DNA of 64,000 nucleotides from Candidatus Nanoarchaeia archaeon (lineage in GTDB: Archaea > Nanobdellota > Nanobdellia > Jingweiarchaeales > Jingweiarchaeaceae). This document shows, piece after piece, positions 2,896-28,404 of the stretch. Under the pieces are notes generated by a model that was given only the letters and a program-made list of their open reading frames with translations, searched no databases and was not told the DNA's origin. The stretch covers positions 8,701 through 72,700 of the forward strand of contig JAVZDD010000001.1 of the NCBI GenBank assembly GCA_038874075.1, written 5' to 3'. Every line of letters begins with the position of its first letter. Position 1 is the first letter of the stretch. The translations under genes were made by a program, and so were the position numbers.

Positions 2896-2896
2896 T

Positions 2897-4945: not shown

Positions 4946-4979
4946 TTAAGAAATGTTTGATTATTTAAAAAACTTTTTA

Positions 4980-5465: not shown

Positions 5466-5515
5466 AGAATCTGTGAGGTAATATACAATTATATTTTTTA
5501 CTAAATAGTGATAAA

Positions 5516-6340: not shown

Positions 6341-6485
6341 TTTTTTGCTTTTTAAACATAACTCTCATCTAATCATCCATTTGTCCTATCCAGTTATGAT
6401 TTTATATGCGATGTTAGTTTTTAACTTTGTCGGATGATGTTCTATATACAATGAATCATACAAAGTCCTTTATCGATAACTTTTT

Positions 6486-6506
6486 TATTTCTGAGTAGTA
6501 TTATAA
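6486..6506 (+). promoter_or_regulatory. Candidate archaeal TATA/BRE region upstream of the giant ORF (possibly leaderless transcript)
   Basis: ttttttatttc / tattataat AT-rich boxes 10-35 nt upstream of the ATG at 6517 in a 176-nt intergenic gap. Confidence 0.25.
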
Positions 6507-6516
6507 TGCTTATTAA

Positions 6517-12500: not shown

Positions 12501-15500
12501 AATATTGGGTGTCTTAAGGATAAATGCGAGTAATTACCCAACAGGGTTGGATGTAAATTATGAAAATGAGACGATAGAGGCAACGATAGAGCATGATATT
12601 TTAATTACAGATGTGATTTTGAACATTACACTCCCAAATAGTACTGTTATCTCTTCCCAAATGCAATCAATGGGAAATAATAATTATGTATTAAATTATA
12701 CACCTAAAATAAATGGTACGCATTCTTACTTTGTTTATGCGATTGACGCATCTAACTTTTTGAATCAAAGTTCAACCGCTTATTTCACTGCTTATAGAAA
12801 TACAACACTTTCGACAAAGCATGCACCACAATTGATCACGATCACGAACATGACATACTTTAATACTCAGCAATTACAAGTAAGTTTGAATGTAACTAAC
12901 CTGGGCCCATCAAGTGCTTATTACACAAACCTAAGTGTACAAACACCAAGTGGTTGGATCTCTAATTACAATGGTAATTGTGGTTTAATAAAAGATGGAG
13001 AATCATGCCTAAGAACTGTTGATATTACAGTACCTTCAAATACTTCACCCGGTATTTATTATCTAAATTCAAATACAACATGGATGAATCCTGATAATAC
13101 ATATAGTTACATTACGAATGTTACAACAGTGAATGTAACTTCAAATCCATTGTTAAACATCTCACAGAATAGTATTGGGGTTGTTGTCCAGCACAATTCT
13201 TATAATATAACAATATTCACAGTTCAATCAATAGGCAATGACAATTTAAGTAACATTCAGTTTGATTGTTATACTGGAATTGTTTGTACAAATTTTAGTG
13301 TCTCTTTCTCACCTTCAAGTATTAGCTTTCTAGGAAGAGGAAATTCACAAGATGTAAATGTAAATGTAAGTGTGCCGCTTGGATTTGCAATGGGTAATTA
13401 TACTGGAATTATAAGGGCGAATGCGACAAGTAGTGTTTGTAATCCAAGTAGTAATTGTTGGGATGAAGTGGAGATAAATATAGAAGTACCACCATCATCG
13501 ACTTGGTATGCTGAAGAGAAGAACTTTTCATTAGCAAGAGTAAATACATCATCTACTGGATTTATTGGTAATATAACAATAAACAATACTGGAAACACAC
13601 CAATACAATTCACATGGGAAGCTTATGGAAACATTTCTTACATGCTCATCGGTGAAAATATCACAGTAGAAAATCAAACTGTAAAAAACATGACAATTAG
13701 TTATTCCATACCCCATACCCTAAACGATACAAACAATACACCAGCATTCTACGCTGGTGGAATAAGGATCATTGCAATAAATGGAGTTCCACAATCGATG
13801 AATTTCTCTGTTAACTTTAGCGTTTATGATACGTTTGCACCAAACATAAACAACTTTAGCTTAGATTCAAATTTCATTGATATAAATTATGGTGTACTTG
13901 GCATTACAGCAAATGTGACAGATAACGTTAAAGTACAATCTGTGTACGTGGAATTTAGTAGACCTGGGAAAAAGTTTAGCAATTTGATGACAAATGTATA
14001 CGATGACATTTATTACTATTCTTGTAAAGCAGATGGAAGTTGTATCGATGCACTTGGAATATGGAACATAAAAATTTCGACATTTGATACTGCAAATAAT
14101 CCTGAAAATCCACCCCCAGGCTATAATGTGAACAGTAGTGGGTATTTACAAGTAGAAGTTGTTGGAAATACAAGTGTAGATATCCTAACAATCCCTGTAA
14201 TAAATGTATCAAATATAACACAAGGTTACGTTTATGAGTTTAATATAACTCCAATATTCAACAACACATTCAAGGGAACTGCATTTTATTCAAATTTGTC
14301 ATTGAATATTAGTTACCCACTCACAATTGATAATGTAAGTACAAAAACAATTAATTTTGGTAATGTTTCAAGATACAGTGCAGTAAATCAGACACTTCTA
14401 GTAAAAATACCGTCTGGAACAGTACCTGGAACTTATCTAATTAACTACAACGCTAGTTGGATGAATGCAGATAATACTCATAATTCAAACATAAACCAAA
14501 CAACAATAAATGTGCTATCAAATCCATTACTGAATATCGTCGAAGATTATATTTTGACTACAATTGCACATGGTTCTTCTAATGCAACGACCTTCAATCT
14601 AAGTTCATATGGTAATGACAATTTAAGTAACATTGAGATAACATGTGTTTCAGGCACTGTATGTACCAATCCTTGCTTTGATGTTCTGTTTGATAAAAAT
14701 TACTTAAACTTGAGCGCTGGAAACAGTTCAATTGTTACAGTAAGTGTGAATGTGGGTTTGGGATGCAGTCCTGGTAATTATACTGGAATTATAAGGGCGA
14801 ATGCGACGAGTAGTGTTTGTAATCCAAGTAGTAATTGTTGGGATGAAGTGGAGATAAATGTAAGTGTCTTAACTTCACCAACATGGGGAATAACACCAAA
14901 TTACCTTTCTCAGATTGTTTATGATAACTCAAGTGGTAATTTAATTGACATATTGGTAAACAATACTGGTAATGTACAAATTAATTTATCAATCACACTT
15001 TCTGGTAATGCAACGACGCCAACACAATTAATTAATGTCACAGAAACAGATGTAAGCGTAGATAAGGTAAGTACAAAAAATGTGACGGTTACTTATGATA
15101 TTCCCAACAATCAAATACCGGGCATATATCAAGCAATTATAACCTTCACAAATACATCTTCTCCAGCAAATCCAACACAAGTAAACGTCACAATTTATAT
15201 TGATGTGAGGGATCCGTATTCTCCTACAATTTCAAATCCGAACCTATCAAAAACAGCACTTGAGGCAAACTTCGAATCTCTTACAATAAATGCAACCATT
15301 ACTGATAATGTTGCAATCTCAGAAGCTTGGGTAAATATCACATTACCAAATATGAGCAATAATATTATTTTTATGAACAATATTGGAGATAATCTATACA
15401 GCACTACATACAAACCACCAATTGGTGGAAGTTACGGTGTAACAATTTATGCAAATGATACATCAAATAACATTGCTTCTATGTATGCAGGCTCGTTTAA

Positions 15501-18500
15501 TGTAATTGGTAAAACAACTGGTAATTTGAAACAAACACCAACGAGTATTAGTTTTAACAACATCACGTACTTACAAGGAGCTCAATTTGATGTTCACTTG
15601 AATATCACGAATGTTGGGAATACAACAATGCGCTACTTGAACCTGACAGTTTTGGTACCTCAAGATGAATATGACTGTGAGAATGGGAAATGCAAGTGGA
15701 ACTTCACATGTAGTGGTCTTAATTGTAATGGCAGTGGAATAAGCTGTGGTAATTTAACGATAAATGAAAGTTGTGATGGTAATTTTACAATATTTGTACC
15801 AAAAGGTACAAGCGGTGGTACTACAAATAATATATTCGGAGCCGCATTTTGGCTCGATCCAGATCTTACAATTGGAAACACAACCAATTATACATCTGTG
15901 ACAGTTGCATCGAATCCTGTTATCAATGTCACCCCATTGGTGGTTAGTAACAGTATTGAACAAGGAAAAATAAGTGTGCTTGGTTCAATTAATATTAGCT
16001 CATATGGTAATTCACCACTTTATACAATGAATTATACAAGTGTTGGGGGAAATTTACCTTATGCTTGGTTATCATTCGCACCAGAGATCGTAAATATACC
16101 TGTTGGTGTAAGAAGAAATTTAGACATAAGTGTAAGTGTTCCCTTTGGTCAAAATCCTGGTATCTACAACACGACACTCATTGTAAACGCAACTGGTTCC
16201 GCCCCATTCTGTGATCCAAGTTCAAGTTATTACAATCCTAATAGTAAGTGTTGGGAATTTGTGAATTTGAGTTTAAATGTACCTGAAAATTGGTCCTGGA
16301 GCAGGTATCCAAGCTCAGATTACATCATTGTTCCAATCACCACGAGTGGACAAATAAACATCACGGTAAACAATACTGGAAACATGGATATTAACTTTGA
16401 AGTTCAATACAGTGGTGATACTTCAATACTTGATCCATTCAGACCAACTTCTTTATTTTCACCGAAGCAAAGCAGTAACTTATTACAAGTGGGTTACAAT
16501 GGTACGATTTCAGGACTTTATAATGTGTTAATAAAATTGGTGAATCTATCCATCCCTTCACCATATCCAAAAGAGCAAACAACAAATATCACATTGAATG
16601 TAACAAATGTTCCTCCTAATATCCAAAATGTGAGTATTGCACCTAGTATCTTGGATGTGAATTATCAAAAAGTGAACATAAGTGCTGTGGTGACGCACCC
16701 AGCATCAAGTGTATATGTCTGGGCTAATATAACAAAACCAGACAATTCAATCACAACAATTCCAATGTCTGGTGTTGGAAATACTTACAGTGCTACCTAC
16801 ACACCGGAACAGGAAGGGATGTATGGTGTTACAATTTATGCGAATGAAAGTAGGGATGGTCTAATGAGTTCTTCTGGAATATATAATTTCTTAGCGTTTG
16901 CGACCACATCACTTGAACTCATTTCGATTCCAAACGAAACAGCAGTTTACAAGATAACACAGTACGATGGAAACATCACAAACTTGAACATTACAGTAAG
17001 AAATACGGGTATGGCAACTGCATACAATACTGTAGTCTCATTACAAGCTCCTCAAGGTTGGACTTTAATTCCAACAATGATAAATTACGGAAATATCACA
17101 AGAAATTCTGCAAATTCAACAATTGTAACAATTACGATACCTAAAGGTACACCACCCGGTAATTATTATGTGAATTTAAATTTGAGCTGGATGAATCCAA
17201 ATAATGTTGTTTCAACTGTCACTTCAAATGTAAGATTTGAAGTTGCACAAAATCCGTTCGCTAACTTTACAACAAAGGAAGCGAGTTCAGTAACATTGGA
17301 TGGGTACTCGAATTATACTATATTAACCTTAAATTCAACGGGTAACATAGATGCAACTGACATTTCAATTTCATGCGTATCTGGACCATGTTCAAATTTG
17401 AGTACCACGATTTCGCCTCCATTTATCTCTTATCTTGCAATTGGAAATACAAGAGATATAAATATAAGCTTCAGCGTTCCAGTTGGATATCCAGCTGGAA
17501 CTCATGTGATTGGTATAAACGCATTCACTCCTATCAACTCAGATGCTGCGAATATCTCGATCACCGTACCACCAAATTACTCATGGAATAGGACACCTAG
17601 TTCTATATTTGCAAGGGTTGGGGTGAGTGAAAACTACACAACGACTGAAATCGGGAGGATAGAGGTAGATAACCTAGGAAACATTGAAATGTTCTTTAAT
17701 ATAACAATCGATAACTCAACATACATCTATCCGAATGTAACGGTCTTGCAAGTACCTAGACAATCAAAGGGTGTTGTTGGTGTGAGGACAGTCGTACCGT
17801 CTGAAAGAGGAACGCACAATGCAACAATTACGATTATAAACAACCTGACAAAAGAGGAAATGAATACAACCGTGAATCTGGAAGTAACAGAACTTAGGGT
17901 GAATGTGATAAGTCCAATTTCAAATGAACTTAGGCCTGTGAAGTTGAATGATACGCTGGAAGTTTTTGCGAATGTAACTTATCAAGGAGTACCATTAACA
18001 GATGGTGTGAATTGGACGATTGAGTTGAGCAATGCAATATATGGTATTACGAAGCAATGTGATGTAAATAACGCAACTTATCAAACAGACCGTTGGAGAA
18101 TTACATGTATAATTCCTGAGACAAGAGATGCAACTTTATATGATTTGGTTGTAAGCGCATATGCATATGATCCATCAATCAACACGATTTCATCAAGTAC
18201 AAGAACAAATGCAATATTTTATGAAGATATCACACCACCCAAATTTGTTGGCGTAAACATCAGTTCTGTGCAACCAAATGAAATTGCTGTTATTAAAGTG
18301 AATGTAACTGATAACGTTGCTGTTTCAGATGCTTGGGTAGAAATAATGTATCCAAATTACAGTACTACAAGTGCAAATCTCACTTATATTGAAAATTTGT
18401 GGCAAATGAGTTTTAATGACACATCACAGATAGGAGATTATGAACTAAAAATCTACGCAAAAGATAATTCGAATAATCTGAATCAAACATATAGTTGGTT

Positions 18501-21105
18501 TGGTTCGTACTACCCGATGAGATTTTATGGGGAAGCGAAGGATGTCGCTGGCAATCCTTATTACATCGAATTTAATTTCTACAGACCTGGAAAAACAGAT
18601 CTACTTTTCAATGTCACAAGCAATCAAACAGGAATCTATGATAAGAACATTAGTGCTAGATTGTATGATATTGAAGTAAAAGCATTTGGAAATAAAATTA
18701 AGTTATATGGTACCAATCTGACAAAGTTCAACAATAGTGGTCTATACTCACCTTTAATATTGGATGATATTGCTGGTGCTTATATTGGCTATGGTGCACT
18801 TAGAGGATTATATGTTGATATAATAAACACAATTTATTACGTTAGTGGTAGTTTAATGATCGATTTTGCTGGAATACCCATCCATTCAATAAATTGGGTT
18901 GGAGTGTATAAGTGTAATAGCTTTGATAGATACAACAAAAAATGTAATCCTAGCGGTAATATTACAAATCCTTGGAATAGGATTGGTGGAGCAATCATTG
19001 GATATACAGCAAATATAAACTTGAGCTCATTTTCAGCATACGCTGCTGCTGAATATATTTGTGGAAATGGAATTTGTGAAAGTGGTACTGGTGAGAGTAG
19101 TGCAAATTGTCCAATTGATTGTCCAACCGAAGTTCCAACACCACCAGGTGGTGGTCCTGGAGCACCGGTGATACCAACACCAACAGTAAATCTAACAAAC
19201 ATCACAGAGGCACTTGTCAATATCACAGAGAAGATTGAGGAACTTATACCAATTCCATCAATGACTGTGATCACAAAATCAATATATGTTGTTTTGTATC
19301 CTGGTGAATATAAAATAGAGTCGATTGATATCACAAACAATTTGAATAGGAAGATAAAAGTAAATATTTCAGTCGAAGGTGCTGCATGGGAATTTGTACA
19401 ATTCGAGAAAACTGAATTCGAAATTGATCCGAGAAGAATTGAGACGATTAATATAAAATTGTATGCATTACCAACTGCACTACCTGGCATTTACACAGGT
19501 AAACTAATTGTTAAAACTGAAAACTTGACAAGCATCATTCCAATTACAATAAAAGTTGAGCTCGCAAGGGAAGCACTTCTTGATATCAAAATTGAGACAA
19601 TAACAAAGGTAATTAAACCAGACGAGCCACTACAATACCGTGTATCATTGTATAATATGGGTACTACAAAGAAGGTGGATGTAACGATAAATTACTCGAT
19701 TAGAAGTATTGAATTTAATAGAACAATATTGAGTCAGCAGGAAACACTAGCGATAGAGACTTCGCTCTCATTCAGAAGATCAATAAAACTACCAAACGAC
19801 ACAAAGCCTGGCAAATTCATCATAGAAGCAGTCGCGTATTATGACAATAGAACTGCAAGTTCCATCGACACATTTGATATTGCTGTAACTCCGTTCGTCG
19901 TTAATATATTCTGGCAGATTTTCACATCACCCTTCACTTATGCAATCATTGCAATTGTCATTGCGATTTATTATGGCAGAAAGTACTATTTGATGTGGCT
20001 CGCAAAGAAGAAGGCAGCAGCTAGATACATCTTCCCTGTTAGCTTCAATAAATTACCAAAGGCAGGTAGAAGATCCATACTCGTTGGTAAAATTGCTGAA
20101 ACAGAATATCCTGCTTATTTTGACATAGACAACCTGACAATGCACGTTGTAGATGCTGGAGGTACTGGTGCTGGAAAATCAGTTTCAGGAATGATAATTG
20201 CTGAAGAACTGTTGAAGAAGGGCATTCCTGTAATCGTATTTGATCCAACACTGCAATGGACTGGTTTTATAAAACCTTGTAGAGATAAGAAGATGCTGGA
20301 GAAATATCCAAAATTTGGATTAAAAACGAGTGATGCGAGGGCATTTCCAACGAACATAATTGTAGTCACAGACCCTGAGATGGATATTAACATAAAGGAA
20401 ATTGCAGCCAGGAAAGGTGAAATAACGGTGTTTTGTTTGAGTAAGCTCACGCCTGAGCAGTTGGATAAATTTGTAAGAAGGACGATAGATGCAATATTTG
20501 ATGTTAGTTGGAGTGAATCAAAGGAATTGAGATTATTAGTTGTTTACGATGAGGTGCATAGATTACTGCCGAAATACGGTGGAAAGGGTGGTTACACCGC
20601 GCTTGAGAGGGGATGTAGAGAATTTAGGAAATGGGGAATTGGATTGTTCATGATATCGCAGGTATTGATGGACTTTAGAGGAGCGATAAGGGCAAACATT
20701 GGGACGGAGATACAGCTAAGGACGAAATACGAAGGTGATATTGGAAGAGTGAAACAGAAATATGGTCCAGAGTATTCAGCAACACTTCCAAAATTAAGAA
20801 TAGGTAGTGCAATGGTGCAGAATCCGGATTACAACGATGGTAAACCTTATTTCATTGAATTTAGACCATTATTACATGATACATTCAGGATAACAAATGA
20901 AGAATTAGAAACGTATAAGAAATTACAAGAATCAATTAGTGAAATAGAGAAAAAAATTAAAGATTTGAAGGATAAAAAGATAGATACATATGATATAGAG
21001 ATAGAATTGGGACTTGCAAAAGAAAAATTGAAACAAGGTTTGACACATATGGCCGAAACTTATATTGAATCGATGAAAGAAAAATTAAAGCGTTTGGAGA
21101 AGTGA
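6517..21105 (+). CDS. Giant (4862 aa) glycosylation-sequon-rich surface protein. It has an N-terminal triple-TM anchor, a DUF2341/LamG-like head, tandem repeat modules, a penultimate TM helix and a C-terminal cytoplasmic HerA/FtsK-type (DUF87) ATPase domain with a coiled-coil tail
   Basis: Uninterrupted 14.6 kb ORF in an AT-rich genome where stop codons are frequent by chance; consistent codon usage; very high density of N-x-S/T sequons; repeated domain architecture; motif details listed in the sub-features below. Confidence 0.85.
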   Translation: MVNMKRDKAFYVVLVLVLFIFLSISFTNQMIAQILLLLVLSSFIFIRVNVIPNKKAISRVVLYLIVIIFFVFYQFYFSRLIDVVFAATVWNFVSPTPTNNTCTTQGPINATVIDGSPSLCKLYVSQNPGSGWSIHEMSLTLGSPNYCYNGTWWQSVSNGRWYYKVNMTDVNGVSSFSNGDYERTFVLDTANPSVTANPTKYPPGQTRAKNGDNVTFNVTVIDSTIAPCGVKNVTVHLSLGFNCTQGEILNLIKYGATDYYVGNCTVDATNEGTYYLPVYAYDNVDHLNDSVQVTVSVDYTPPTVTITSPTNTQYNTSSINLTFTANDNIASTMTCQRTLDGVTTLIGAVNNNTENTTIMNLEPGVHQVNVTCWDDAYNNGTSSTITFGVWRYIYANVTRNPEAPANLSRVPGCSIPTSITWNVTDIKDEFDNPINGTLLNVTWRGNTVWNGNIYTWWNKSWQRRKPITISNVNTSDLIDYQVVMNITYDNDMQSDFSDIRFTWYNKTSGVEVEIPYWIENKSDSNWVYVWVKIPIIYASSNTTIYVYYKNTTLVSSKSNGRDTFDLFDDWESGIVNTSYWTTGGSVSPYWITHTSTKYQGSYSSGNNDIGDLQISWIKKSINLLMPGKLEFYWSVSSESCCDFLYYCIDNDGCTRTSGYISRIAGTVGWTFVNYNLTAGTHSIKFAYEKDISVSYGSDTGWIDFVKVRKYVYPEPTSSIGTEEQIENLNLLPLSGVFDIPNDNVLGESDDFLNITITKPYYFAYTNNSSDYHIQGVLNQSGSLISWTPSGSAIDNFEPSIEGGPSVSASYLIRDDLSVTLTENTHYIKTNYGDWNASDNNAGDTIIPNTTFTGINNYCGTVTFSKSYLVHGKISDISSIIWSPSGNNIDRFYGGSYGGPDVSYGSLVVIDNKGNVVAPTNYSENKIGDWNASDNNAGDVIISNLNITSKLDAGSCGTLNCYWHGYVNQTKSYTVWANLTIKSVAPPNATIVYRSNCNTPYNVTLRVNLTDDKGNLVSGANTIIYHPSGTCSVNDENNGYYNCTYDPSDTIVPGLYTWTAEASKNYYYNTGNATLLYLEIRGCSNINITQPLNTSSFNRSQTMDIKVNITDEFNQPVSDVGVTCELTKANGVKVYPNCIYNLSSYLWEANYTFANDDPVGIWYLKVNVSGSYSYAEKIYEITLFGKLNVTSVLTKDKVDRGSDWGYGTIALLNASINDESGPVSDVYVKFYANDNFIGENTTDSSGIARLYWDPDDNLNVGAYKIEVEAYKTYYYNDTSKSLNNYTDVYGKLFVRNVSSPVNVDRKNNYGYGTIAILEVNVSDDLYVPINASTVEFYINTSVVGTNTSGVNGYYKYNWDPDNNLNPGIYVFYANARDVQYYHNYTDTVPNSTITVWGKLNITSFGFTDKEIYRIGESTVLSVNVSDENDVAVNNAIVSFVRDSSIINVTNTTNGYASYTYDPSDTITPNNYTMYVNVSKQYYYNDSKQDWLLIKGKINLTIISPNTGQKFYRNNTVQLNSNVTDENNVEVSPDWSEWKKIFPTQEVISNQPDYDWNIPYNYPKGLLSIQFNATKMYYDIVGAIPSVDITIWSKANVTILNSPQDLNRGNNITIVARVSDHFTNENLGGYDIGWFVNDVNIANYTTAPDGTSSYYWITNCSYDVGVNWINATIGNDTSNYIDANIANSKIDIHLIGNLSTSIISPHLDSLYHINDVIQLNSSTIDDCNNYVIPVVTWRNETDVIQSGINATWTIPLTYNKGPTNITIYANKSYYYNATNSTRIIIYRWVNITDLNPINVTYPVGTIINFTCFVRDANLSLGIENYPVNFYKNGVLQNVSYTNTSGLALWIWNTTNELSNNYTIKCNITDNATLYLNKSHPYEQQGNITIERRLWIINISVDNRTIYRNDTWAILNNLPYATNITVEVWDAAINPASNVIVHFFNSTNEMGNCTTNSDGKCSVIFNPPDTIIVQNYTILINATKIGNDPSFTENTTIEILGVLRINASNYPTGLDVNYENETIEATIEHDILITDVILNITLPNSTVISSQMQSMGNNNYVLNYTPKINGTHSYFVYAIDASNFLNQSSTAYFTAYRNTTLSTKHAPQLITITNMTYFNTQQLQVSLNVTNLGPSSAYYTNLSVQTPSGWISNYNGNCGLIKDGESCLRTVDITVPSNTSPGIYYLNSNTTWMNPDNTYSYITNVTTVNVTSNPLLNISQNSIGVVVQHNSYNITIFTVQSIGNDNLSNIQFDCYTGIVCTNFSVSFSPSSISFLGRGNSQDVNVNVSVPLGFAMGNYTGIIRANATSSVCNPSSNCWDEVEINIEVPPSSTWYAEEKNFSLARVNTSSTGFIGNITINNTGNTPIQFTWEAYGNISYMLIGENITVENQTVKNMTISYSIPHTLNDTNNTPAFYAGGIRIIAINGVPQSMNFSVNFSVYDTFAPNINNFSLDSNFIDINYGVLGITANVTDNVKVQSVYVEFSRPGKKFSNLMTNVYDDIYYYSCKADGSCIDALGIWNIKISTFDTANNPENPPPGYNVNSSGYLQVEVVGNTSVDILTIPVINVSNITQGYVYEFNITPIFNNTFKGTAFYSNLSLNISYPLTIDNVSTKTINFGNVSRYSAVNQTLLVKIPSGTVPGTYLINYNASWMNADNTHNSNINQTTINVLSNPLLNIVEDYILTTIAHGSSNATTFNLSSYGNDNLSNIEITCVSGTVCTNPCFDVLFDKNYLNLSAGNSSIVTVSVNVGLGCSPGNYTGIIRANATSSVCNPSSNCWDEVEINVSVLTSPTWGITPNYLSQIVYDNSSGNLIDILVNNTGNVQINLSITLSGNATTPTQLINVTETDVSVDKVSTKNVTVTYDIPNNQIPGIYQAIITFTNTSSPANPTQVNVTIYIDVRDPYSPTISNPNLSKTALEANFESLTINATITDNVAISEAWVNITLPNMSNNIIFMNNIGDNLYSTTYKPPIGGSYGVTIYANDTSNNIASMYAGSFNVIGKTTGNLKQTPTSISFNNITYLQGAQFDVHLNITNVGNTTMRYLNLTVLVPQDEYDCENGKCKWNFTCSGLNCNGSGISCGNLTINESCDGNFTIFVPKGTSGGTTNNIFGAAFWLDPDLTIGNTTNYTSVTVASNPVINVTPLVVSNSIEQGKISVLGSINISSYGNSPLYTMNYTSVGGNLPYAWLSFAPEIVNIPVGVRRNLDISVSVPFGQNPGIYNTTLIVNATGSAPFCDPSSSYYNPNSKCWEFVNLSLNVPENWSWSRYPSSDYIIVPITTSGQINITVNNTGNMDINFEVQYSGDTSILDPFRPTSLFSPKQSSNLLQVGYNGTISGLYNVLIKLVNLSIPSPYPKEQTTNITLNVTNVPPNIQNVSIAPSILDVNYQKVNISAVVTHPASSVYVWANITKPDNSITTIPMSGVGNTYSATYTPEQEGMYGVTIYANESRDGLMSSSGIYNFLAFATTSLELISIPNETAVYKITQYDGNITNLNITVRNTGMATAYNTVVSLQAPQGWTLIPTMINYGNITRNSANSTIVTITIPKGTPPGNYYVNLNLSWMNPNNVVSTVTSNVRFEVAQNPFANFTTKEASSVTLDGYSNYTILTLNSTGNIDATDISISCVSGPCSNLSTTISPPFISYLAIGNTRDINISFSVPVGYPAGTHVIGINAFTPINSDAANISITVPPNYSWNRTPSSIFARVGVSENYTTTEIGRIEVDNLGNIEMFFNITIDNSTYIYPNVTVLQVPRQSKGVVGVRTVVPSERGTHNATITIINNLTKEEMNTTVNLEVTELRVNVISPISNELRPVKLNDTLEVFANVTYQGVPLTDGVNWTIELSNAIYGITKQCDVNNATYQTDRWRITCIIPETRDATLYDLVVSAYAYDPSINTISSSTRTNAIFYEDITPPKFVGVNISSVQPNEIAVIKVNVTDNVAVSDAWVEIMYPNYSTTSANLTYIENLWQMSFNDTSQIGDYELKIYAKDNSNNLNQTYSWFGSYYPMRFYGEAKDVAGNPYYIEFNFYRPGKTDLLFNVTSNQTGIYDKNISARLYDIEVKAFGNKIKLYGTNLTKFNNSGLYSPLILDDIAGAYIGYGALRGLYVDIINTIYYVSGSLMIDFAGIPIHSINWVGVYKCNSFDRYNKKCNPSGNITNPWNRIGGAIIGYTANINLSSFSAYAAAEYICGNGICESGTGESSANCPIDCPTEVPTPPGGGPGAPVIPTPTVNLTNITEALVNITEKIEELIPIPSMTVITKSIYVVLYPGEYKIESIDITNNLNRKIKVNISVEGAAWEFVQFEKTEFEIDPRRIETINIKLYALPTALPGIYTGKLIVKTENLTSIIPITIKVELAREALLDIKIETITKVIKPDEPLQYRVSLYNMGTTKKVDVTINYSIRSIEFNRTILSQQETLAIETSLSFRRSIKLPNDTKPGKFIIEAVAYYDNRTASSIDTFDIAVTPFVVNIFWQIFTSPFTYAIIAIVIAIYYGRKYYLMWLAKKKAAARYIFPVSFNKLPKAGRRSILVGKIAETEYPAYFDIDNLTMHVVDAGGTGAGKSVSGMIIAEELLKKGIPVIVFDPTLQWTGFIKPCRDKKMLEKYPKFGLKTSDARAFPTNIIVVTDPEMDINIKEIAARKGEITVFCLSKLTPEQLDKFVRRTIDAIFDVSWSESKELRLLVVYDEVHRLLPKYGGKGGYTALERGCREFRKWGIGLFMISQVLMDFRGAIRANIGTEIQLRTKYEGDIGRVKQKYGPEYSATLPKLRIGSAMVQNPDYNDGKPYFIEFRPLLHDTFRITNEELETYKKLQESISEIEKKIKDLKDKKIDTYDIEIELGLAKEKLKQGLTHMAETYIESMKEKLKRLEK
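6544..6780 (+). other. N-terminal triple transmembrane anchor of the giant protein
   Basis: Three hydrophobic helices (FYVVLVLVLFIFLSISF; IAQILLLLVLSSFIFI; VVLYLIVIIFFVFYQFYF) separated by short basic loops; positive-inside rule places the following ~4400 aa outside. Confidence 0.6.
7870..8660 (+). other. DUF2341-like domain followed by LamG/concanavalin-like domain
   Basis: WWNKSWQRRKPITISN...DFSDIRFTWYNKTSGVEVEIPYWIENKSDSNWVYVWVKIPIIYASSNTTIYVYYKN matches the W-W-x-YR...DIRF...YWIE...VWVK...YVYYGN signature of DUF2341; the following ~150 aa has the LamG-like pattern usually paired with it. Confidence 0.55.
13393..13479 (+). repeat. 87-bp near-identical direct repeat, copy 1 (in-frame, encodes GNYTGIIRANATSSVCNPSSNCWDEVEIN)
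   Basis: ggtaattatactggaattataagggcgaatgcgacaagtagtgtttgtaatccaagtagtaattgttgggatgaagtggagataaat recurs at 14773 with one mismatch. Confidence 0.9.
14773..14859 (+). repeat. 87-bp near-identical direct repeat, copy 2
   Basis: One mismatch (acaag vs acgag) relative to 13393-13479; flanking sequence diverged. Confidence 0.9.
19061..19135 (+). other. Cys-rich knot module (CGNGICESGTGESSANCPIDCP) followed by a Pro/Gly/Thr linker
   Basis: Pattern C-G-N-G-x-C-E-x-G-x-x-E-x-x-x-x-C-P-x-D-C; the same pattern occurs three times in the Cys-rich protein at 54130-55269. Confidence 0.5.
19921..19980 (+). other. Penultimate transmembrane helix separating the extracellular region from the cytoplasmic ATPase domain
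   Basis: FTSPFTYAIIAIVIAIYYG followed by basic RKYYLMWLAKKKAAAR (positive-inside). Confidence 0.7.
20020..20880 (+). other. Cytoplasmic HerA/FtsK-superfamily P-loop ATPase domain (DUF87/AAA-like, related to VirB4/TrbE/CedB-type ATPases)
   Basis: Walker A VDAGGTGAGKS (20155-20181) followed by GIPVIVFDPTLQW; Walker B LLVVYDEVHRLLP (20534-20560); EFRKWGIGLFMISQ (the EGRK-G...SQ motif of DUF87); terminal PYFIEFRP beta-strand pattern. Confidence 0.8.
20881..21102 (+). other. C-terminal coiled-coil tail of the giant protein
   Basis: Heptad-like K/E-rich sequence NEELETYKKLQESISEIEKKIKDLKDKK...KEKLKRLEK. Confidence 0.5.
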
Positions 21106-21110
21106 TAAGG

Positions 21111-22532
21111 ATGGAATTAAATTTACCTTTTTTGAAGAGGGAGGAAAAGGGAGAAAGCGAAGAGGAGAAAAGGAAAGATAGGGATAATAATAAAAAGGAG
21201 GAGGAAAAGAAGAAGAAATTGACTGAAGCAAAGACTGTGGGTGAGATGGCTGCAATCTTGCAGGAAATTCCAGTGGAAGATGAGGAAGTGAAAGAGGAAG
21301 AGAAAAGGGAAGAAAAAGCTGGCATAGAAATTGATCCAAAGCAATTGTTTATAGAAATTGAAAAAATGAAGGTTGAGATTGATGGAATAAAAGAAGATAA
21401 GACAAGAATTGAGGAAAAAATTGATAGATTCGTTGAGAGTATTGGTGAGCTTAGAAGTCTGTTATCACAAAGGGAAGTGTCATTCAAGGAACAGGAAATA
21501 AAGCTCAATAAATTAGTTGAAATTGTGGGTGAAATAGACCCAACAAAGTATGGCGTAGAGCTAAAAAAAATTGAAAAGGATGTTTCTATTCTACAAGCAA
21601 GAATAGAAAAATTGGAAAGAATAAGTGTTGATTTAGTTAAAGACTTACAATCGCTACGGGATATCTTGGATAAAGTGAAGGACATCTCTACTATAATGGG
21701 AATGAATAGGGAATTAAGTGAAAAATTAGCGAAGATTGAGGATATTGGAAGTAAAGTGGAAAGAGATACAAATAAAGTTGAAAAAATGTACGCTGAAATT
21801 GATAAAAAAATTATGGATATACCGATGCTAAAAGAAAAAAATGAGAAGTTGGATGGACTTTTAAAGGAGCTTTTGATGAGTGTTGATGAAATTAAAATCA
21901 GATTAGATGCTTGTATAAGTAAAGATGACCTTGATTCATTAAGAGAAAGTATGAGGGAAGAAACGAGAGTACAAGTCGAAGATTTAAGGAAAGAGATTGA
22001 GGAAATGAAAATATCAAAACCTGTCGAAGAAAAAATCGAAGAGATTAAGAAATTTCCAAGTGAAAGTGAGATCGAGGAATTAAAGAGGGAGAGGGAAGAA
22101 ATAATCAGGTTTTTGAGCGCGCTTGAAGATGAATACAGGGAAGCCACAATCTCTGAGAAGAGTTATCAAGAAGCAAAAGAAAAAAACACGGTAAGATTGC
22201 ATCAAATTGAAAAGAGATTGAAGGAAATAAAGGAGATGGAAGAACAGATGGAAATTGAGAAGCAAATATTTACTGCGAAAAAAGCAATTGATGAGATAAA
22301 TCGGGTGAGTGAAGAGTTAAATAAGAAACTTACTGATATTGAGAAAAAATTAACAAGTGTTGATTTACTTGTATCTGACATCCAGAACATTAAAAATAAA
22401 TTAACGCAGTTGGAGGAAAGCGATAAAAAAATTATAAGTGATAGCACAGCATTATCAAATCAATTTAATCAAATAAAATCGATCTTTGAAAAAAGACTAA
22501 AAGAAATGTCAAAAATTGTGGAAGAGTTATAG
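21111..22532 (+). CDS. Long coiled-coil protein (E/K-rich), immediately downstream of the giant gene
   Basis: ~474 aa dominated by heptad-like E/K/L/I repeats, no TM; ATG at 21111 preferred over GTG at 21102 that overlaps the giant gene's stop. Confidence 0.6.
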   Translation: MELNLPFLKREEKGESEEEKRKDRDNNKKEEEKKKKLTEAKTVGEMAAILQEIPVEDEEVKEEEKREEKAGIEIDPKQLFIEIEKMKVEIDGIKEDKTRIEEKIDRFVESIGELRSLLSQREVSFKEQEIKLNKLVEIVGEIDPTKYGVELKKIEKDVSILQARIEKLERISVDLVKDLQSLRDILDKVKDISTIMGMNRELSEKLAKIEDIGSKVERDTNKVEKMYAEIDKKIMDIPMLKEKNEKLDGLLKELLMSVDEIKIRLDACISKDDLDSLRESMREETRVQVEDLRKEIEEMKISKPVEEKIEEIKKFPSESEIEELKREREEIIRFLSALEDEYREATISEKSYQEAKEKNTVRLHQIEKRLKEIKEMEEQMEIEKQIFTAKKAIDEINRVSEELNKKLTDIEKKLTSVDLLVSDIQNIKNKLTQLEESDKKIISDSTALSNQFNQIKSIFEKRLKEMSKIVEEL

Positions 22533-22541
22533 TGATTTTTA

Positions 22542-25500
22542 ATGCTAAGATCATGGAAAAGATTGGTTATATTAGCGATATGGTGCTTATTCTTAATTAG
22601 TTTTTCAAAGGCTGAATGGTGGAATACTTCATTTCATTACAGAGTACCAGTTAATATAAGTACTGGAAACTATAACAGGACTGAATGGCCGATTGAGATA
22701 AGAATAAACTTTACACAATTAATTTATGATCTAAAGGGTAGATATGAGATATTTGATAATAATTCTATTCGTGTCATAGAATATGATTCAGATGGTTATG
22801 TAATAAATGATAACAACGGACTTGGAATCGTCTCACAATTTGACGAAGATGAAGATTACGATGCAACTTATAATGCTGTTGGTGAATTGGTCTTTCTATT
22901 AAATGGAACAACACCTGCTAATACCACCAGGTACTTTTACATTTATTTTGATACAATGGAAAATCAAAAACAACCTCCAAGCTACCAGACAAATTTGACA
23001 TATGTGTGGGATGATGAAGAATTTAATGTGAATAACTCAATTTACAGACTTTGGATTGATACGCTTAGAAACGATAATACATCCGGAATATATAAAGTAA
23101 ATTTTACAGATGGTAGACTGCTCACCGAAATTGCGCCAAGCGGAAGAACGCTTGAGTATGTTAGTTATTGGAATTCAACAAACCAATTCATGTATAACCT
23201 TTCCCACCAAATGAAAATTTTGTATGCAGGACCGGTAAGAATTGTTGTAGAACAGTTGGGAAATGAATCACTTTGGAACTCTAATGTTCAAACAAACCAA
23301 ACAAAATTAAGGAAGAAGTATGTCTTCTATGAGAAAAATCAGTGGATAAGGATAAATGAAACATTAAGTAATGTGCATACGACAGATATAGATAGGTGTT
23401 CGAACGATCCAACATATATACCTGGTGCTCCTGGAACAAGTGATTATATATACGCACTTGCGATTGACGCGAGGAGAGGAAATTTCTATGGAAATGCATA
23501 CGTAATAAATGATTGGGTATCTGTCTTTAATTCAAGTACTGCTGTTGGTATGGGTGTAATACTTTTATATAATTCAACACCAAACTATTTTGTAGACTAT
23601 AGTGACACTTGGGGTAGGATTGGAGTACAGTTGGACAATACAACAATTCCAATTAATGAAAGCATTTCTTTCTCTGCTATTTTGTATTTTAATAACATTT
23701 CTTCGCATAGCCCAATTGAAGAATTGAGGAATAGAGTATTTGCTCCTGTTTCCATTTCAATGGGCAATGCAAGCGCATGGTATATAAACATCACAACGAT
23801 AACTAATCACGACGTTTACAATCGAAAAGAAATGGTAAGTATAATTGCAAATGTCACTTCTGATCCTTGGAACCTTGTAAACTATGTAAATGCTACGCTT
23901 GATTTAAATTCTCTTTTAATGCAACTTACTTATGCTGGATTTAAGTATTATACTGGTAATTACACGTTTGCAAACAACGATACGACGGGTGTTTGGAACA
24001 TTACAACAATTGCTTACGATTCATCTTGGCAATTTTTAAATCAATCTTCAAAATTGATAAACCTAACAGATATTTACAACATGAACTTGACGATAAGAAA
24101 CAAGTATGGACCGATCTCAAGAAAGTTGATTACTGATGTGGGTATAAAAAATTATAGAAATGATACAAACATTGTTGGTATTCCGCAGTCAAATTTCAGT
24201 TGTAATTTAACAATTTTAGAATTTTCTGAAATCGGAAATGGCTTATACAACCTAAATTTTACTGCTCCAATTGAAATCGGTAATTATACATTATTCTGTA
24301 ATATAAATTTCAACGGAAACGTTGGCAATTCAACTGACAGCTATATTACAGAAGAAAATAAGACGCAAGTGAGTATTGAACTTTTACCAGACAATATCAC
24401 AGCCACAAATATCACTTCAACGAATTCACAGATTTTTGAGATGAATTTAACAGCAATTAACCTCAGAAATGGTACGGCATACAAAGCTAACATCACGATT
24501 TCTCTACCAACAAATTGGAGTGCAACGCAAACATTTTTCAATTGTGGTGATATTGCACCGAGTAACAATTGCACTATATATTTCAATGTGACGATTCCAA
24601 GTAAGACCCATTCTGGAAATTATGTAGTAAATGCGACGATTGCTTGGATGAATCCTGATGGATCAATAAATCAAACGAGTGACTTTTCGAATGTAAATGT
24701 TACATCGAACATTACTCTCTATATTCCTGAAAATGAACTAATTGCAGTGGTTGAGCATGGGAGAAATATGCAGATTGGAAACTTTACCTTAAATTCGCTT
24801 GGCAATGATCCTGTATCAAATATTAGTTTTTCATATCAAATTGCTGAAAACATATCCATCATCTTCACACCAAGTGATATTTCTTATTTGGATTCTGGAG
24901 AATCTATTGTTGTATTTGTAAACGTTTCTGTTCCGGCTGGCTACGCACCTGGAAATTACATAGGAAACATCACAATAGATACCGAAAACGATGGAAGCAA
25001 AACATTGTTATTGAACATAGATGTGCCATTGAACAGAACTTGGACAAGGATCCCAAGCGCATGTTATAAATATATAGCTGCACCTGTGGGTTTTGCATGC
25101 AATATCACAATAAATAACACAGGAAACGCTGAATTAAATTTTACCATACATCCAAATGCGACTTCCGATTCAATGGTAAATCAAACATGGCCGAATGTGA
25201 CGAGCATCTTCTTAGAAAAACAGACTTCTTATGTGCTGCCAATCTTTTATAATATCACTGGATTAAACAATGGAACATTTCAAACGACATATACAATAAC
25301 AGCAAACCAATCGGATGCAATTCCACAAAATTTAACAACGATCGTTAATATCACAATTTCACTTGGTCCTGAAATAAACATCACAATTTATCCAAGTTTA
25401 ACAGAACAGATGAGTGATATCGTAATAAATGCGAGTTTATATGATAGGTCTTATACTGGGATATCTTGGGTAAAAATAAATGTGACGAGACCCAATGGAA

Positions 25501-27680
25501 CGATAGATACAACAGAAATGATCCTTGTGAATTCAAGTGGTGATTTCTCAAACTGGACGATCACATATCCCCATAACTGGGGTTCTACATTGTTGAGGGG
25601 AAGATATGATGTGATAGTATACTCAATGGACAACACGGGTGCAATTAACAATGTGACTGGAAACTTCACAATACATGCAAACTTATCGATAATAATGAGG
25701 ACTGGAGCTAGTTCATATTTCCAAGGCGAAAATGGCATTATAAGATACAATGTATACGACTCAAATCAAATACCACTACAAAATGTGAGTGTTTGGATAA
25801 ATATTACAGATCCTGAAGGTAATCGATTGCAAATAATACCTTCCTCTCCATATATCACAAATTCAAACGGTACACTGGATTATTTGCCTCAATTTGAAAT
25901 CACTTCGGATGCGAAGCCTGGAAATTATACTTTAAGTTCATATTCCTCATTCTTTGACCCCATCACAAACACAAGTACAAACAAGATGAATTCAACAATC
26001 TTCTTCGTTTATCCGGTGCTTAGTGCTGATTTCATCACTGTGATCAATTGGTTTCCCAACAATTTGATGCGTTTTATAATATCTACCTATGAAAGAGGCA
26101 TACCCGCTGATCCTGAACAAATGAATTTGGTTGTTTATGACCCAAATTTGGTTGTATATATAAATGCTTCTTCGCTCAATAACTTTACAAGAAGGAGTGT
26201 TGGGTCTTACATTTTTGCGTACATGATGCCATCAAGTCCACCATTGGGACAATACACTGCCTTTCTGAATGTATCAAAAGATGGATTCAGGATTGAGAAA
26301 ACAATTGTCTTCAACGTGGTTCAGGGTCCCCAGTTGATTTTGTATGATATCATATTGATGCTCTTAAAGTCAGAGGTAAATCAAAGTGAAAATCTACCCT
26401 TTGAACTCACGATCATAAACAAAGGTAATGTAAATCAAGATGTTTATGTTGATTATTGGATAAGTACGAGCCCTCTTGGGATACCTTGTAGCAATTGCTG
26501 GGTTGCAAAAAATGCAGATGTTGTATTTGTACCGGTAAATTCGAGTGTCACGTTAAGTAGAAGTGCACCAATTTATTCAACACAAGCTCCAGGTACTTAT
26601 TATTTAAACACAAATGTGACTTATGGAATCAATTTTACTGATTCAAAGACGATCCAACAATCAAAGAGTTTTATTGTTAGAGGAGCCCAGCCAACGAATG
26701 TAACACCAATTACGAACATTACACCTCTCTTGATCATTCCAAATCCAAGAATAAGCATCATTGGTTATCCATCAGTTATTGATATTGAGAAAGGATGGAC
26801 AAAATATGTAAGTGTTGAAATTAAGAATGTTGGTAATACAAATCTAAATAATATTTCACTTCAGATTGCCGGAATTCCTTTTTCATGGTTTGAAATAACA
26901 CCAAGCTTAATTGGCATCTTGTATCCAGAAAATTCAACCACATTTTTGATAAAAATTTCTCCTCCAAGTGATACTGAAACGGCTGAATTCAACGTTACAT
27001 TGATAGTCACATCTGACTTGGCAAGTGATAGTAAAAGATTTGTTTTGGGTGTTTTTTCCACTTTACAAGAGATGTTAAAGAGACAGATAAGTAGATTATG
27101 GGAACAATATAATCTGGTGAGGGGAAAAGCGGGTGTTGCTTCAAGCGAAGGAAAAAATGTTACTGCTGTACTTGATCTATTAAACCAGGCAAAGATGGCG
27201 CTTGAGAATGCTGAGAACTATTTGAACATGAAGATGTACGATGAATGCATCGCTTCGATTGGAAGAGCTAGAGATTTGATAGATAAGGCTGAGCAAGCAC
27301 TTTTAATTGCTCCTGTCATACGTGTCATTCCGGAGAAACCAGTTGAAGTATTACCAAACTGGATTCCATACATATTTTCGTTCTTGTCACTACTCATTTT
27401 AATTATTGTTTTAACGATGATCATATTTTATTTATTAAAGAGAAAAAGAGAGGAAGAGATAAGACCTAGCATTGAAGAGATAAAAAGGGTTAAGGAAGTG
27501 ATTGAAAGGGAACCAAAAGATATACTTGAGAGAAAAAGGGATGCGATCAAAGAAGCATTAAAAGTGATTGAAAGGGAGCATAGGATGGGTCTATTATCAA
27601 CTGAGAGTTATGGTGAATTGAAAAGAAAGAATGAGGAGAAGCTAGCAATTATTGAAAGAAAACTTAAAGGTGAATATTGA
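22542..27680 (+). CDS. Second giant surface protein (1712 aa) with signal peptide, N-terminal DUF2341-like domain, the shared A/B/C module, Ig-like repeats, a C-terminal TM helix and a cytoplasmic coiled-coil tail
   Basis: Signal peptide MLRSWKRLVILAIWCLFLISFSKA; WWNTSFHYRVPVNIS...EWPIEIRINF (DUF2341-like); N-x-S/T sequons throughout; module with TIAWMNPDGS and LGNDPVSNISF; TM WIPYIFSFLSLLILIIVLTMIIFYLL (27361-27440) then KRKREEE... coiled coil. Confidence 0.8.
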   Translation: MLRSWKRLVILAIWCLFLISFSKAEWWNTSFHYRVPVNISTGNYNRTEWPIEIRINFTQLIYDLKGRYEIFDNNSIRVIEYDSDGYVINDNNGLGIVSQFDEDEDYDATYNAVGELVFLLNGTTPANTTRYFYIYFDTMENQKQPPSYQTNLTYVWDDEEFNVNNSIYRLWIDTLRNDNTSGIYKVNFTDGRLLTEIAPSGRTLEYVSYWNSTNQFMYNLSHQMKILYAGPVRIVVEQLGNESLWNSNVQTNQTKLRKKYVFYEKNQWIRINETLSNVHTTDIDRCSNDPTYIPGAPGTSDYIYALAIDARRGNFYGNAYVINDWVSVFNSSTAVGMGVILLYNSTPNYFVDYSDTWGRIGVQLDNTTIPINESISFSAILYFNNISSHSPIEELRNRVFAPVSISMGNASAWYINITTITNHDVYNRKEMVSIIANVTSDPWNLVNYVNATLDLNSLLMQLTYAGFKYYTGNYTFANNDTTGVWNITTIAYDSSWQFLNQSSKLINLTDIYNMNLTIRNKYGPISRKLITDVGIKNYRNDTNIVGIPQSNFSCNLTILEFSEIGNGLYNLNFTAPIEIGNYTLFCNINFNGNVGNSTDSYITEENKTQVSIELLPDNITATNITSTNSQIFEMNLTAINLRNGTAYKANITISLPTNWSATQTFFNCGDIAPSNNCTIYFNVTIPSKTHSGNYVVNATIAWMNPDGSINQTSDFSNVNVTSNITLYIPENELIAVVEHGRNMQIGNFTLNSLGNDPVSNISFSYQIAENISIIFTPSDISYLDSGESIVVFVNVSVPAGYAPGNYIGNITIDTENDGSKTLLLNIDVPLNRTWTRIPSACYKYIAAPVGFACNITINNTGNAELNFTIHPNATSDSMVNQTWPNVTSIFLEKQTSYVLPIFYNITGLNNGTFQTTYTITANQSDAIPQNLTTIVNITISLGPEINITIYPSLTEQMSDIVINASLYDRSYTGISWVKINVTRPNGTIDTTEMILVNSSGDFSNWTITYPHNWGSTLLRGRYDVIVYSMDNTGAINNVTGNFTIHANLSIIMRTGASSYFQGENGIIRYNVYDSNQIPLQNVSVWINITDPEGNRLQIIPSSPYITNSNGTLDYLPQFEITSDAKPGNYTLSSYSSFFDPITNTSTNKMNSTIFFVYPVLSADFITVINWFPNNLMRFIISTYERGIPADPEQMNLVVYDPNLVVYINASSLNNFTRRSVGSYIFAYMMPSSPPLGQYTAFLNVSKDGFRIEKTIVFNVVQGPQLILYDIILMLLKSEVNQSENLPFELTIINKGNVNQDVYVDYWISTSPLGIPCSNCWVAKNADVVFVPVNSSVTLSRSAPIYSTQAPGTYYLNTNVTYGINFTDSKTIQQSKSFIVRGAQPTNVTPITNITPLLIIPNPRISIIGYPSVIDIEKGWTKYVSVEIKNVGNTNLNNISLQIAGIPFSWFEITPSLIGILYPENSTTFLIKISPPSDTETAEFNVTLIVTSDLASDSKRFVLGVFSTLQEMLKRQISRLWEQYNLVRGKAGVASSEGKNVTAVLDLLNQAKMALENAENYLNMKMYDECIASIGRARDLIDKAEQALLIAPVIRVIPEKPVEVLPNWIPYIFSFLSLLILIIVLTMIIFYLLKRKREEEIRPSIEEIKRVKEVIEREPKDILERKRDAIKEALKVIEREHRMGLLSTESYGELKRKNEEKLAIIERKLKGEY

Positions 27681-27693
27681 TTTAGGTGAGCAA

Positions 27694-28404
27694 ATGGTAA
27701 GGATAATAGGTGTGATATCTGGTAAGGGTGGAGTTGGTAAGACAACGGTCGTTGCTAATCTTGGACTAGCGCTTACTACAAAATTCAATAAAGAAGTGAT
27801 AATCATCGATTGTAACATTACAACATCTCATTTGGGTCTATACTTTGGTTTACATAGCGTGACAACGACATTAAACAATGTATTAAGGGGAGAAGCGATC
27901 ATTGAGGATGCAATTTATATGCATGAAAGTGGATTAAAAATCGTTCCTGCCTCTTTGGCAGCACATGATTTGATTGGTGTTGACATCATCATGCTTGAAA
28001 AAACATTGGAAAGATTATTCGGAAAGGCTGATTTTGTATTATTGGATTCTGCGCCTGGTCTTGGTAGGGAGGCATATGGTACAATAATTGCGAGCAAAGA
28101 AGTAATAATGGTCACGATTCCATATTCACCAGCAATAATTGATTTAATCAGATGTAATCAAGTGATCAAGGAGCTTGGTCCAAGGGCCCTTGGCATCGTA
28201 TTGAACATGGTCACTAGGGACAGATATGAGCTAACGGAGGAGGAAGTAAGTAATATCGTTGGGTTACCTGTGATCGGATCGATACCATATGATAAAAACA
28301 TACTGAAATCCCTTGCATTGAGAACACCTTTACTTAACTATAAACCAAAATCTAGAGCAAGTAAAGAGTTCATAAAACTTGCGAATAGGATTTTAGAACT
28401 ATAA
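27694..28404 (+). CDS. minD: MinD/ParA-family (SIMIBI) ATPase
   Basis: Deviant Walker A GKGGVGKTT near the N-terminus (MVRIIGVISGKGGVGKTTVVANLG), Walker B FVLLDSAPG; ATG at 27694 has a GGTGA Shine-Dalgarno-like motif 7 nt upstream, and the in-frame extension to 27652 overlaps the upstream gene. Confidence 0.85.
   Translation: MVRIIGVISGKGGVGKTTVVANLGLALTTKFNKEVIIIDCNITTSHLGLYFGLHSVTTTLNNVLRGEAIIEDAIYMHESGLKIVPASLAAHDLIGVDIIMLEKTLERLFGKADFVLLDSAPGLGREAYGTIIASKEVIMVTIPYSPAIIDLIRCNQVIKELGPRALGIVLNMVTRDRYELTEEEVSNIVGLPVIGSIPYDKNILKSLALRTPLLNYKPKSRASKEFIKLANRILEL

Follow-up and report, generated by a model that had tools for sequence, protein, structure and literature searches.

We analyzed a giant gene located in a stretch of 64,000 nucleotides of the genome of a Candidatus Nanoarchaeia archaeon (assembly GCA_038874075.1, contig JAVZDD010000001.1, positions 8,701 to 72,700 of the forward strand), in the following referred to as the window, whose own numbering is used for all coordinates. 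The gene occupies positions 6517–21105 of the forward strand, stop codon included, and consists of a single unbroken open reading frame (ORF) of 4,862 codons. Since the frame remains open for 14.6 kb in DNA of 35% GC content, a chance origin is excluded. The encoded protein of 4,862 amino acids combines a very long, predicted extracellular region with a C-terminal ATPase, and is assigned by the evidence described below to the SPEARE family, known from Nanohaloarchaeota.

A Kyte-Doolittle scan of the whole protein detected exactly four hydrophobic segments. Three of them lie close to each other at the N-terminus (residues 9-27, 30-48 and 60-78, within positions 6541–6750), and the fourth is a C-terminal transmembrane (TM) helix at residues 4468-4486 (IFTSPFTYAIIAIVIAIYY, positions 19918–19974). 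The N-terminal three-helix region may be either a signal anchor or an N-terminal membrane anchor; an N-in, C-out topology would fit the positively charged residues found before the first helix and between the second and the third. The region enclosed between the third and the fourth helix, about 4,370 residues in length (positions 6802–19917), is predicted to be extracellular and contains immunoglobulin (Ig)-like, NEW3/CARDB-like and DUF2341 modules, recognized in Pfam as NPCBM_assoc (102.5 bits), DUF2341 (57.6 bits) and further weak Ig-like matches. It is also very rich in N-x-S/T sequons, 256 of which were counted against about 99 expected from shuffled sequences, while a single one is present in the 362-residue C-terminal region. 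A stretch rich in lysine and arginine, GRKYYLMWLAKKKAAARY, directly follows the fourth TM helix. This stretch and the marked asymmetry of the sequons place the ATPase on the cytoplasmic side, and an architecture made of an extracellular, putatively glycosylated stalk and a cytoplasmic ATPase is directly supported. The Ig-like domains nearest to the membrane (positions 19486–19917) are kept out to Nanohaloarchaeota, as seen in the alignment with the SPEARE of Nha. antarcticus, and are also found in the short paralogues P0074 and P0113.

Only about 35 residues link the fourth TM helix to the ATPase core, a HerA-clade P-loop domain predicted at residues 4502-4788 (positions 20020–20880, forward strand like all the features of this gene). 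Four motifs could be recognized, each occurring once in the protein: a Walker A motif, AGGTGAGKS (residues 4547-4555, including K4554; positions 20155–20181); the motif GIPVIVFDPTLQW (residues 4569-4581); a Walker B motif, LLVVYDEVHRL (residues 4673-4683, including D4678 and E4679; positions 20533–20565); and REFRKWGIGLFMISQ (residues 4701-4715; positions 20617–20661), in which a HerA-type Arg/Lys motif (R4704) is combined with a sensor SQ (Q4715). The protein ends with a tail of three helices, probably a coiled coil (positions 20890–21102; residues 313-338, 344-358 and 362-380 of an AlphaFold2 model of the monomer), which is kept as far as Nanohaloarchaeota in the alignment with the Nha. antarcticus protein. 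In an alignment of 20 homologues of the ATPase (A1), the G/G/G/K residues of Walker A, the D-E-x-H-R of Walker B, R-E-F-R-K-W-G, S-Q and N..E.Q are invariant.

Pfam analysis of the C-terminal 462 residues returned two families above cutoff, DUF87 (43.7 bits, cutoff 23.2) and HerA_C (31.9 bits, cutoff 22), so that the motif matches cannot be attributed to chance. An earlier note on this stretch had quoted the same four motifs, located the ATPase after a fourth TM helix at the cytoplasmic end of a giant glycosylated surface protein, and interpreted it as a catalytically intact, DUF87-type member of the HerA/FtsK P-loop ATPases; this description is confirmed by the results reported so far.

We used alignment A1 as a profile against the sequences of the PDB. 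S. solfataricus HerA (4d2i) was matched with an E value of 7e-11 and other HerAs with values of 1e-8 to 1e-10; DotL, FtsK, TcpA and TrwB were marginal (0.02-0.7), and no VirB4 was present among the matches of this profile. The top 20 Foldseek matches of the ATPase were HerA throughout, and the structural neighbours are all ATPases of the FtsK-HerA superfamily, DptH and antiphage HerAs being included. In a hidden Markov model alignment, HerA residues K154, E355/E356 and R381, the latter being the arginine of REGRKFG, correspond to K4554, D4678/E4679 and R4704, and the HerA segment REGRKFGVGL..SQ aligns with REFRKWGIGLFMISQ. NCBIfam produced only local matches, far below threshold: the best was to CedD (40 bits, cutoff 600, E 1.7e-10), and the others were to the HerA equivalogs (19-31 bits, cutoffs 800-970), CedB (22.8 bits, cutoff 700), TraC (TIGR02746, 20.5 bits, cutoff 567) and TraD. 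The hallmarks of the FtsK-HerA superfamily are present, namely Walker A, the acidic pair of Walker B, the Arg/Lys motif, the sensor Q and a RecA-like ASCE fold. Taken together, these comparisons show the predicted ATPase to belong to the HerA/VirB4 branch of this superfamily, with all core catalytic motifs kept, and its nearest relatives, HerA, VirB4, DptH and the coupling-protein/FtsK motors, are those of the clade in which the earlier note had placed it.

The finding of DptH and antiphage HerAs among the structural neighbours, along with partial matches to PADLOC HerA profiles (the best of 52 bits, covering about 150 of 576 profile positions), raises the question of whether the ATPase might serve as HerA subunit in antiphage defence of the Sir2-HerA, DUF4297-HerA or Dnd/DptH type, while being fused to a surface protein. 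We rejected this explanation, which is hardly credible: none of the adjacent genes encodes a Sir2, DUF4297, NurA or Dnd effector, the protein features no HAS-barrel, the matches are local and at the level of the superfamily, those of the ATPase in NCBIfam being all far below cutoff, and the conserved genomic context is one of surface proteins, a coiled-coil protein and MinD.

SPEARE proteins of Nanohaloarchaeota, up to 8,553 amino acids long, were defined by Hamm et al. (2019, PNAS, PMC6642349) as mostly extracytoplasmic proteins, which have a TM helix close to their C-terminus and a conserved part inside the cell. Relatives of this intracellular part were reported in Woese-, Aenigm- and Micrarchaeota and in Altiarchaeales; in the same study a SPEARE protein was detected by proteomics, and is hence expressed. 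Reva et al. (2023, Front Microbiol, PMC10266531) later re-analyzed SPEAREs, including the 9,409-residue SVXNc_0300, and described a TM helix, followed by a cytosol-facing VirB4/TraG-like ATPase and by a terminal coiled coil, with no nuclease. Taking as a reference the Ca. Nha. antarcticus SPEARE sequence printed in the supplement of Hamm et al., a BLASTP comparison aligned the last 541 residues of the window protein with its C-terminus over 552 columns, with 38% identity (E 5e-122). The two sequences remain collinear from the membrane-proximal Ig-like domains to the helical tail, with the TM helix and all the ATPase motifs included. The published architecture and this direct alignment identify the window ORF, at the sequence level, as a chromosomal member of the SPEARE family: it features the intracellular homology, the extracytoplasmic bulk with a C-terminal TM helix and cytoplasmic end, and the very large size of an adhesion-type DPANN protein. 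This architecture is already published and, contrary to what was stated in the earlier note, the fusion had been described before. The specific protein gave zero matches in an exact-sequence look-up. The fusion of an adhesin to an ATPase is unmentioned in Makarova 2015, dealing with archaeal membrane proteins, in the Thermococcales Ig-module paper and in the 'Giant genes' preprint, and no literature pairing DUF87 with DPANN was found.

The intracellular region of SPEAREs was originally interpreted by Hamm et al. as a type III restriction-enzyme domain, degrading imported host DNA. A ResIII match is indeed seen in the window protein, although below cutoff (16.3 bits, E 0.0092, cutoff 22.5), and a distant homologue, P0240, exceeds the cutoff with 27.2 bits; these matches explain the annotation of 2019. 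ResIII is, however, a helicase-type P-loop module rather than a nuclease, and the match is limited to the P-loop core; DUF87 and HerA score far better. Furthermore, the structural neighbours are all FtsK-HerA ATPases, no nuclease or protease domain was found in the window protein by Pfam and NCBIfam scans, and Reva et al. (PMC10266531) likewise argue against this function. The restriction-enzyme reading was rejected and may be regarded as effectively refuted. As protease and nuclease domains have been argued not to be real in the founding SPEAREs either (PMC10266531), their absence does not exclude the window protein from the family.

Further fusions of the same kind proved to be abundant in other archaea. 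The ATPase module has 352 matches in a database clustered at 90% identity, mainly labelled as Aenigmarchaeota, Nanoarchaeota, Woese- and Pacearchaeota, and at least 580 loci were found by scanning one genome per species. The best 80 loci, 56-67% identical, mostly carry Aenigmatarchaeota labels, along with some Micr-, Woese-, Pace-, Parv-, Nanohalo- and Altiarchaeota, in agreement with the relatives reported in 2019 by Hamm et al. By walking upstream in frame, the great majority of the loci provided with a full 10-kb flank were found to be open over all 3,333 available codons. Exhaustive search of a library of representatives of 50%-identity clusters yielded 1,159 matches with E ≤ 1e-3, 370 of which with E ≤ 1e-30. 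The size of the 145 representatives retrieved is at least 1,000 residues in 117 cases, at least 2,000 in 69 and at least 4,000 in 23, the longest reaching 7,878; no more than 30 residues separate the end of the matched ATPase region from the C-terminus in 74 of them. The adhesin-ATPase fusion appears in this light as the usual arrangement in hundreds of DPANN species, and this breadth is what the present analysis adds to the published picture.

Comparison with eight orthologous loci revealed a steep gradient of conservation, also newly added here. Identity is 23-44% in 300-residue windows of the ectodomain, 35-40% in the 300 residues proximal to the membrane, and 62-67% in the segment containing the TM helix and the ATPase, a pattern well described by a putative variable 'antenna' mounted on a conserved motor. 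The invariant catalytic motifs and the higher identity of the motor (62-67%) with respect to the ectodomain (25-40%) point to an active enzyme, maintained under selection.

The family members form a series of increasing size, starting from a TM helix and an ATPase alone (P0102, 385 residues), continuing with proteins composed of a signal peptide, one or two Ig-like domains, a TM helix and the ATPase, and ending with the giants; members of intermediate size are P0074, P0113 and paralogues of about 725 residues found in loci L032, L071 and L074. In some genomes a giant and a short paralogue are found together (L037/L071, L044/L074 and the tandem pair in L002). In L002 (positions 1-11659), a giant of at least 3,904 residues with a C-terminal DUF87 is directly followed by a short paralogue of 552 residues, featuring a signal peptide, an Ig-like domain, a TM helix and the ATPase; this tandem may be the 'second ATPase downstream' of the nanohaloarchaeal SPEARE loci. 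The paralogues of about 725 residues carry a cleavable signal peptide (..VYAQ/..VHAQ), a Cys-rich module (C..CCWC..C.{1,2}CPCP), a Pro/Gly-rich linker and Ig domains, and have downstream a coiled-coil gene, a small glycoprotein and MinD, resembling a miniature of the module found in the window and described below.

Some loci and proteins depart from the common arrangement. Two candidates for a natural form split in two genes were considered and discarded. In L048 the split is due to a single in-frame TGA (positions 8533-8535) within the conserved Ig domain next to the membrane, the gene being intact in all other respects, and this codon may reflect an error of sequencing, pseudogene formation or stop-codon recoding; in L001 the ATPase comes after a gene of 8,615 codons and a string of fragments, and does not constitute evidence for such a form. 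P0232, P0186, P0244 and P0173 continue for 300-730 residues past the ATPase, with TPR or DUF5752-like sequences in place of the short helical tail. The possibility that C-terminal extensions (150-730 residues) correspond to a fused coiled-coil partner was also rejected, as no BLASTP similarity was found and Pfam reported only TPR and DUF5752. Finally, P0110 is labelled as Patescibacteria, a bacterium of the candidate phyla radiation, and the closest genome match, L003, lies on a 3.5-kb contig of a 'Heimdallarchaeota' bin: either both are mis-binned DPANN contigs or a transfer between lineages took place.

The giant gene is followed, on the same strand, by three genes which are often found with it in other genomes. 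The first (positions 21102–22532) encodes a soluble, highly charged coiled-coil protein of 476 residues; its listed GTG start overlaps the stop codon of the giant gene, and the probable start is an ATG at 21111. No TM segments and no sequons were found in this protein by scanning, and its Pfam and NCBIfam matches are of coiled-coil type only. A homologue is located directly downstream, in the same orientation, in 61 of 64 loci. After a gap of 10 nt, the second gene (positions 22542–27680, forward strand) codes for a C-terminally anchored glycoprotein of 1,712 residues, featuring 95 sequons, an NPCBM_assoc match of 70 bits, a TM helix at residues 1611-1629 and a cytoplasmic coiled-coil tail of 83 residues; it has repeats in common with the ectodomain of the giant, and a homologue is present downstream in 35 of 49 loci. 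The third gene (positions 27652–28404, forward strand), whose start overlaps the end of the preceding one, encodes a MinD-type ATPase of the archaeal kind (TIGR01969 minD_arch, 212 bits, cutoff 201.75), found downstream in 23 of the 49 loci. Overlapping or closely spaced genes and the conserved synteny indicate that the genes form an operon. The conservation of a module composed of the giant, the coiled-coil partner, the second glycoprotein and MinD, shown here by comparing predicted genes, is a further addition of this analysis.

A 'WWN.S' segment is found both in the giant (positions 7999-8262, residues 495-582, inside the DUF2341 match) and in the neighbouring 1,712-residue protein (positions 22542-22700), where the resemblance was noticed by eye; together with the repeats shared by the ectodomains, it suggests a partly common origin of the two. 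Directly after the MinD gene and convergent to it, a gene on the reverse strand (positions 28399-29490) encodes a 363-residue coiled-coil protein, with SMC/JetC-like matches of coiled-coil type only. The locus is chromosomal, and is flanked by genes for Kae1/TsaD, CysRS, a DRG GTPase and a RecJ-like DHH protein. No NurA, Mre11 or Rad50 is found among the neighbours of the giant gene, which are the coiled-coil protein, the glycoprotein and MinD, and Pfam and NCBIfam scans detected no type IV secretion system (T4SS) genes nearby in the locus; Ced and Ups genes are absent from the window. Farther away, on the reverse strand, an ORF of 2,781 codons (positions 55326-63671) has Ig-like matches (Big_13, 82.8 bits, and Big_3_2) and 11 sequons; scanning revealed no hydrophobic segment and no ATPase in its product, which seems to belong to another class of large proteins than the SPEARE giant.

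The explanation that, taken as a whole, we consider very probable is that the window protein is a SPEARE family member, equipped with a motor of the HerA/VirB4 branch, and would serve both attachment to the host and transport of a polymer. Like its solved relatives, the ATPase would form a ring beneath the membrane, probably of six subunits, by which several stalks would be bundled together. The ectodomain would attach the symbiont to its host and, at the contact site, the motor would spend ATP in moving a polymer, DNA or protein, across the symbiont membrane, in a way reminiscent of coupling ATPases anchored in the membrane, like CedB/CedD or VirD4, while the coiled-coil partner and MinD may scaffold or position the assembly. 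The movement of a polymer is here inferred from the biology of the superfamily. A similar role, with SPEAREs acting as secretion 'straws' into the host, was proposed by Reva et al. (PMC10266531), and their idea of contact-dependent secretion matches the functional speculation put forward in the earlier note.

Several observations weigh against this explanation. The formation of a ring is deduced from homologues. As to the arginine finger, whose conservation the earlier note had proposed to check, the residue equivalent to HerA R381 is invariant, whereas the one equivalent to R142 is a Met in the window protein and varies among homologues, so that conservation is confirmed for one arginine only; we take these two residues to be those involved in the question of the trans-acting arginine in HerA. 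Neither a HAS-barrel nor the VirB4 N-terminal domain (PF03135, CagE_TrbE_VirB) was found by Pfam. In Nha. antarcticus, peptides of the cytoplasmic part were recovered only in fractions below 315 kDa (PMC6642349), and the motor may accordingly be cleaved off the stalk. Transport has not been tied experimentally to any SPEARE ATPase. Moreover, a polytopic channel protein of the type of CedA, VirB6 or FtsK-N is missing from the module, and DNA would hardly find a suitable pore in six single TM helices by themselves.

As no such channel protein is encoded in the module, a bundling or mechanical role becomes the main rival. The HerA-like ring would in this case only hold about six giant stalks together in a fibre, and changes induced by ATP would act through the TM helices, regulating adhesion by inside-out signalling, or remodelling or retracting the fibre; the coiled-coil partners would form a submembrane scaffold, positioned by MinD. 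This would be in keeping not only with the missing channel, but also with conserved partners which are coiled-coil proteins and a positioning ATPase rather than T4SS or Ced components, with the cytoplasmic coiled-coil tail of the second glycoprotein, and with the lack of both the HAS-barrel and the VirB4 N-terminal domain. Nonetheless, HerA/FtsK-type motors act on polymers, and we know of no ring of this family serving as a pure signalling scaffold. In addition, the solved structural relatives have been deposited as translocases, helicases, secretion or coupling ATPases, or ATPases of defence systems, and the minimal member of the series, P0102, composed of a TM helix and an ATPase only, has no stalk to organise. 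Altogether, we judge a purely mechanical function rather unlikely, and favour polymer transport at the site of attachment to the host.

A more speculative extension of the transport hypothesis, which seems quite improbable to us, is that the module constitutes a self-contained contact machine of DPANN archaea, where six giants would supply the fibre and, with their 3+1 TM helices per chain, the channel as well, and the HerA-like ring, placed by MinD, would pump host DNA or some other polymer into the symbiont. If true, this would represent a transport apparatus built of components unrelated to those of T4SS or Ced.

In many DPANN genomes no other genes are as conspicuous as those for SPEARE-type proteins, to which a role in attachment to host cells is ascribed. 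The window adds an intact example from a non-halophilic organism, and the question of what the motor does is sharpened by its assignment to the HerA/VirB4 branch, by its conservation over that of the stalk, by the wide occurrence of the fusion and by the partners travelling with it. The coiled-coil protein, the second glycoprotein and MinD are concrete candidates for interaction and localisation studies in cultivable DPANN-host systems.

The features of the window protein may be compared with those of known systems. Nanohaloarchaeal SPEAREs (NAR1_1133 of Ca. Nanohaloarchaeum antarcticus; AOV94740.1 of Ca. Nanopetramus SG9; SVXNc_0300; BNXNv_0298) have in common with it a giant adhesin-like ectodomain, a single C-terminal TM helix, a P-loop ATPase and a coiled-coil tip, as well as the NEW3/NPCBM_assoc annotation and a DPANN lineage. 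In contrast, the window protein comes from a different phylum, most likely from an Aenigmatarchaeota-like organism, and from a non-halophilic genome of 35% GC content, has three N-terminal hydrophobic helices, and features a sequon-rich ectodomain of NEW3 and DUF2341 type, in which no WD40, LamG or toxin-like regions were detected; the downstream gene encodes a coiled-coil protein, whereas a second ATPase of the VirB4/TraG family is found at this position in SVXNc and BNXNv (PMC10266531).

Among the other HerA/FtsK-type systems, archaeal HerA (S. solfataricus, PDB 4d2i) provides the best match in both sequence and structure, with alignment of Walker A and B, of the REGRKFG-type motif and of the SQ sensor. 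Identity is, however, limited to 14-18%, and the window ATPase differs in being anchored to the membrane, in lacking a HAS-barrel and a NurA partner, and in the unconserved equivalent of R142. VirB4/TrbE proteins are set apart by the PF03135 domain, absent from the window protein, and by the other T4SS genes, absent from its locus. The succession of a TM anchor and a nucleotide-binding domain is shared with the VirD4/TraG/TrwB coupling proteins; at the family level, the match to the T4SS-DNA_transf profile (PF02534), with 15.7 bits, stays below its cutoff of 20.1, and the resemblance does not extend to the sequence families (PF02534 or PF10412) and the all-alpha domain by which the VirD4/TrwB/TcpA group is recognized. 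CedB and CedD of Sulfolobales have a VirB4-like N-terminal domain and work with the channel proteins CedA/CedE and with Ups pili, none of which is present in the window, and have no counterpart of the giant ectodomain; the match to CedD, of 40 bits, is to be read against an equivalog cutoff of 600. Both they and the window protein are nevertheless TM-anchored ATPases of the HerA clade, and the Ced ones operate where cells are in contact with each other. Among experimentally characterised proteins, the closest analogue of the SPEARE motor described here is CedD, which Saccharolobus needs in order to import DNA (PMC11868833).

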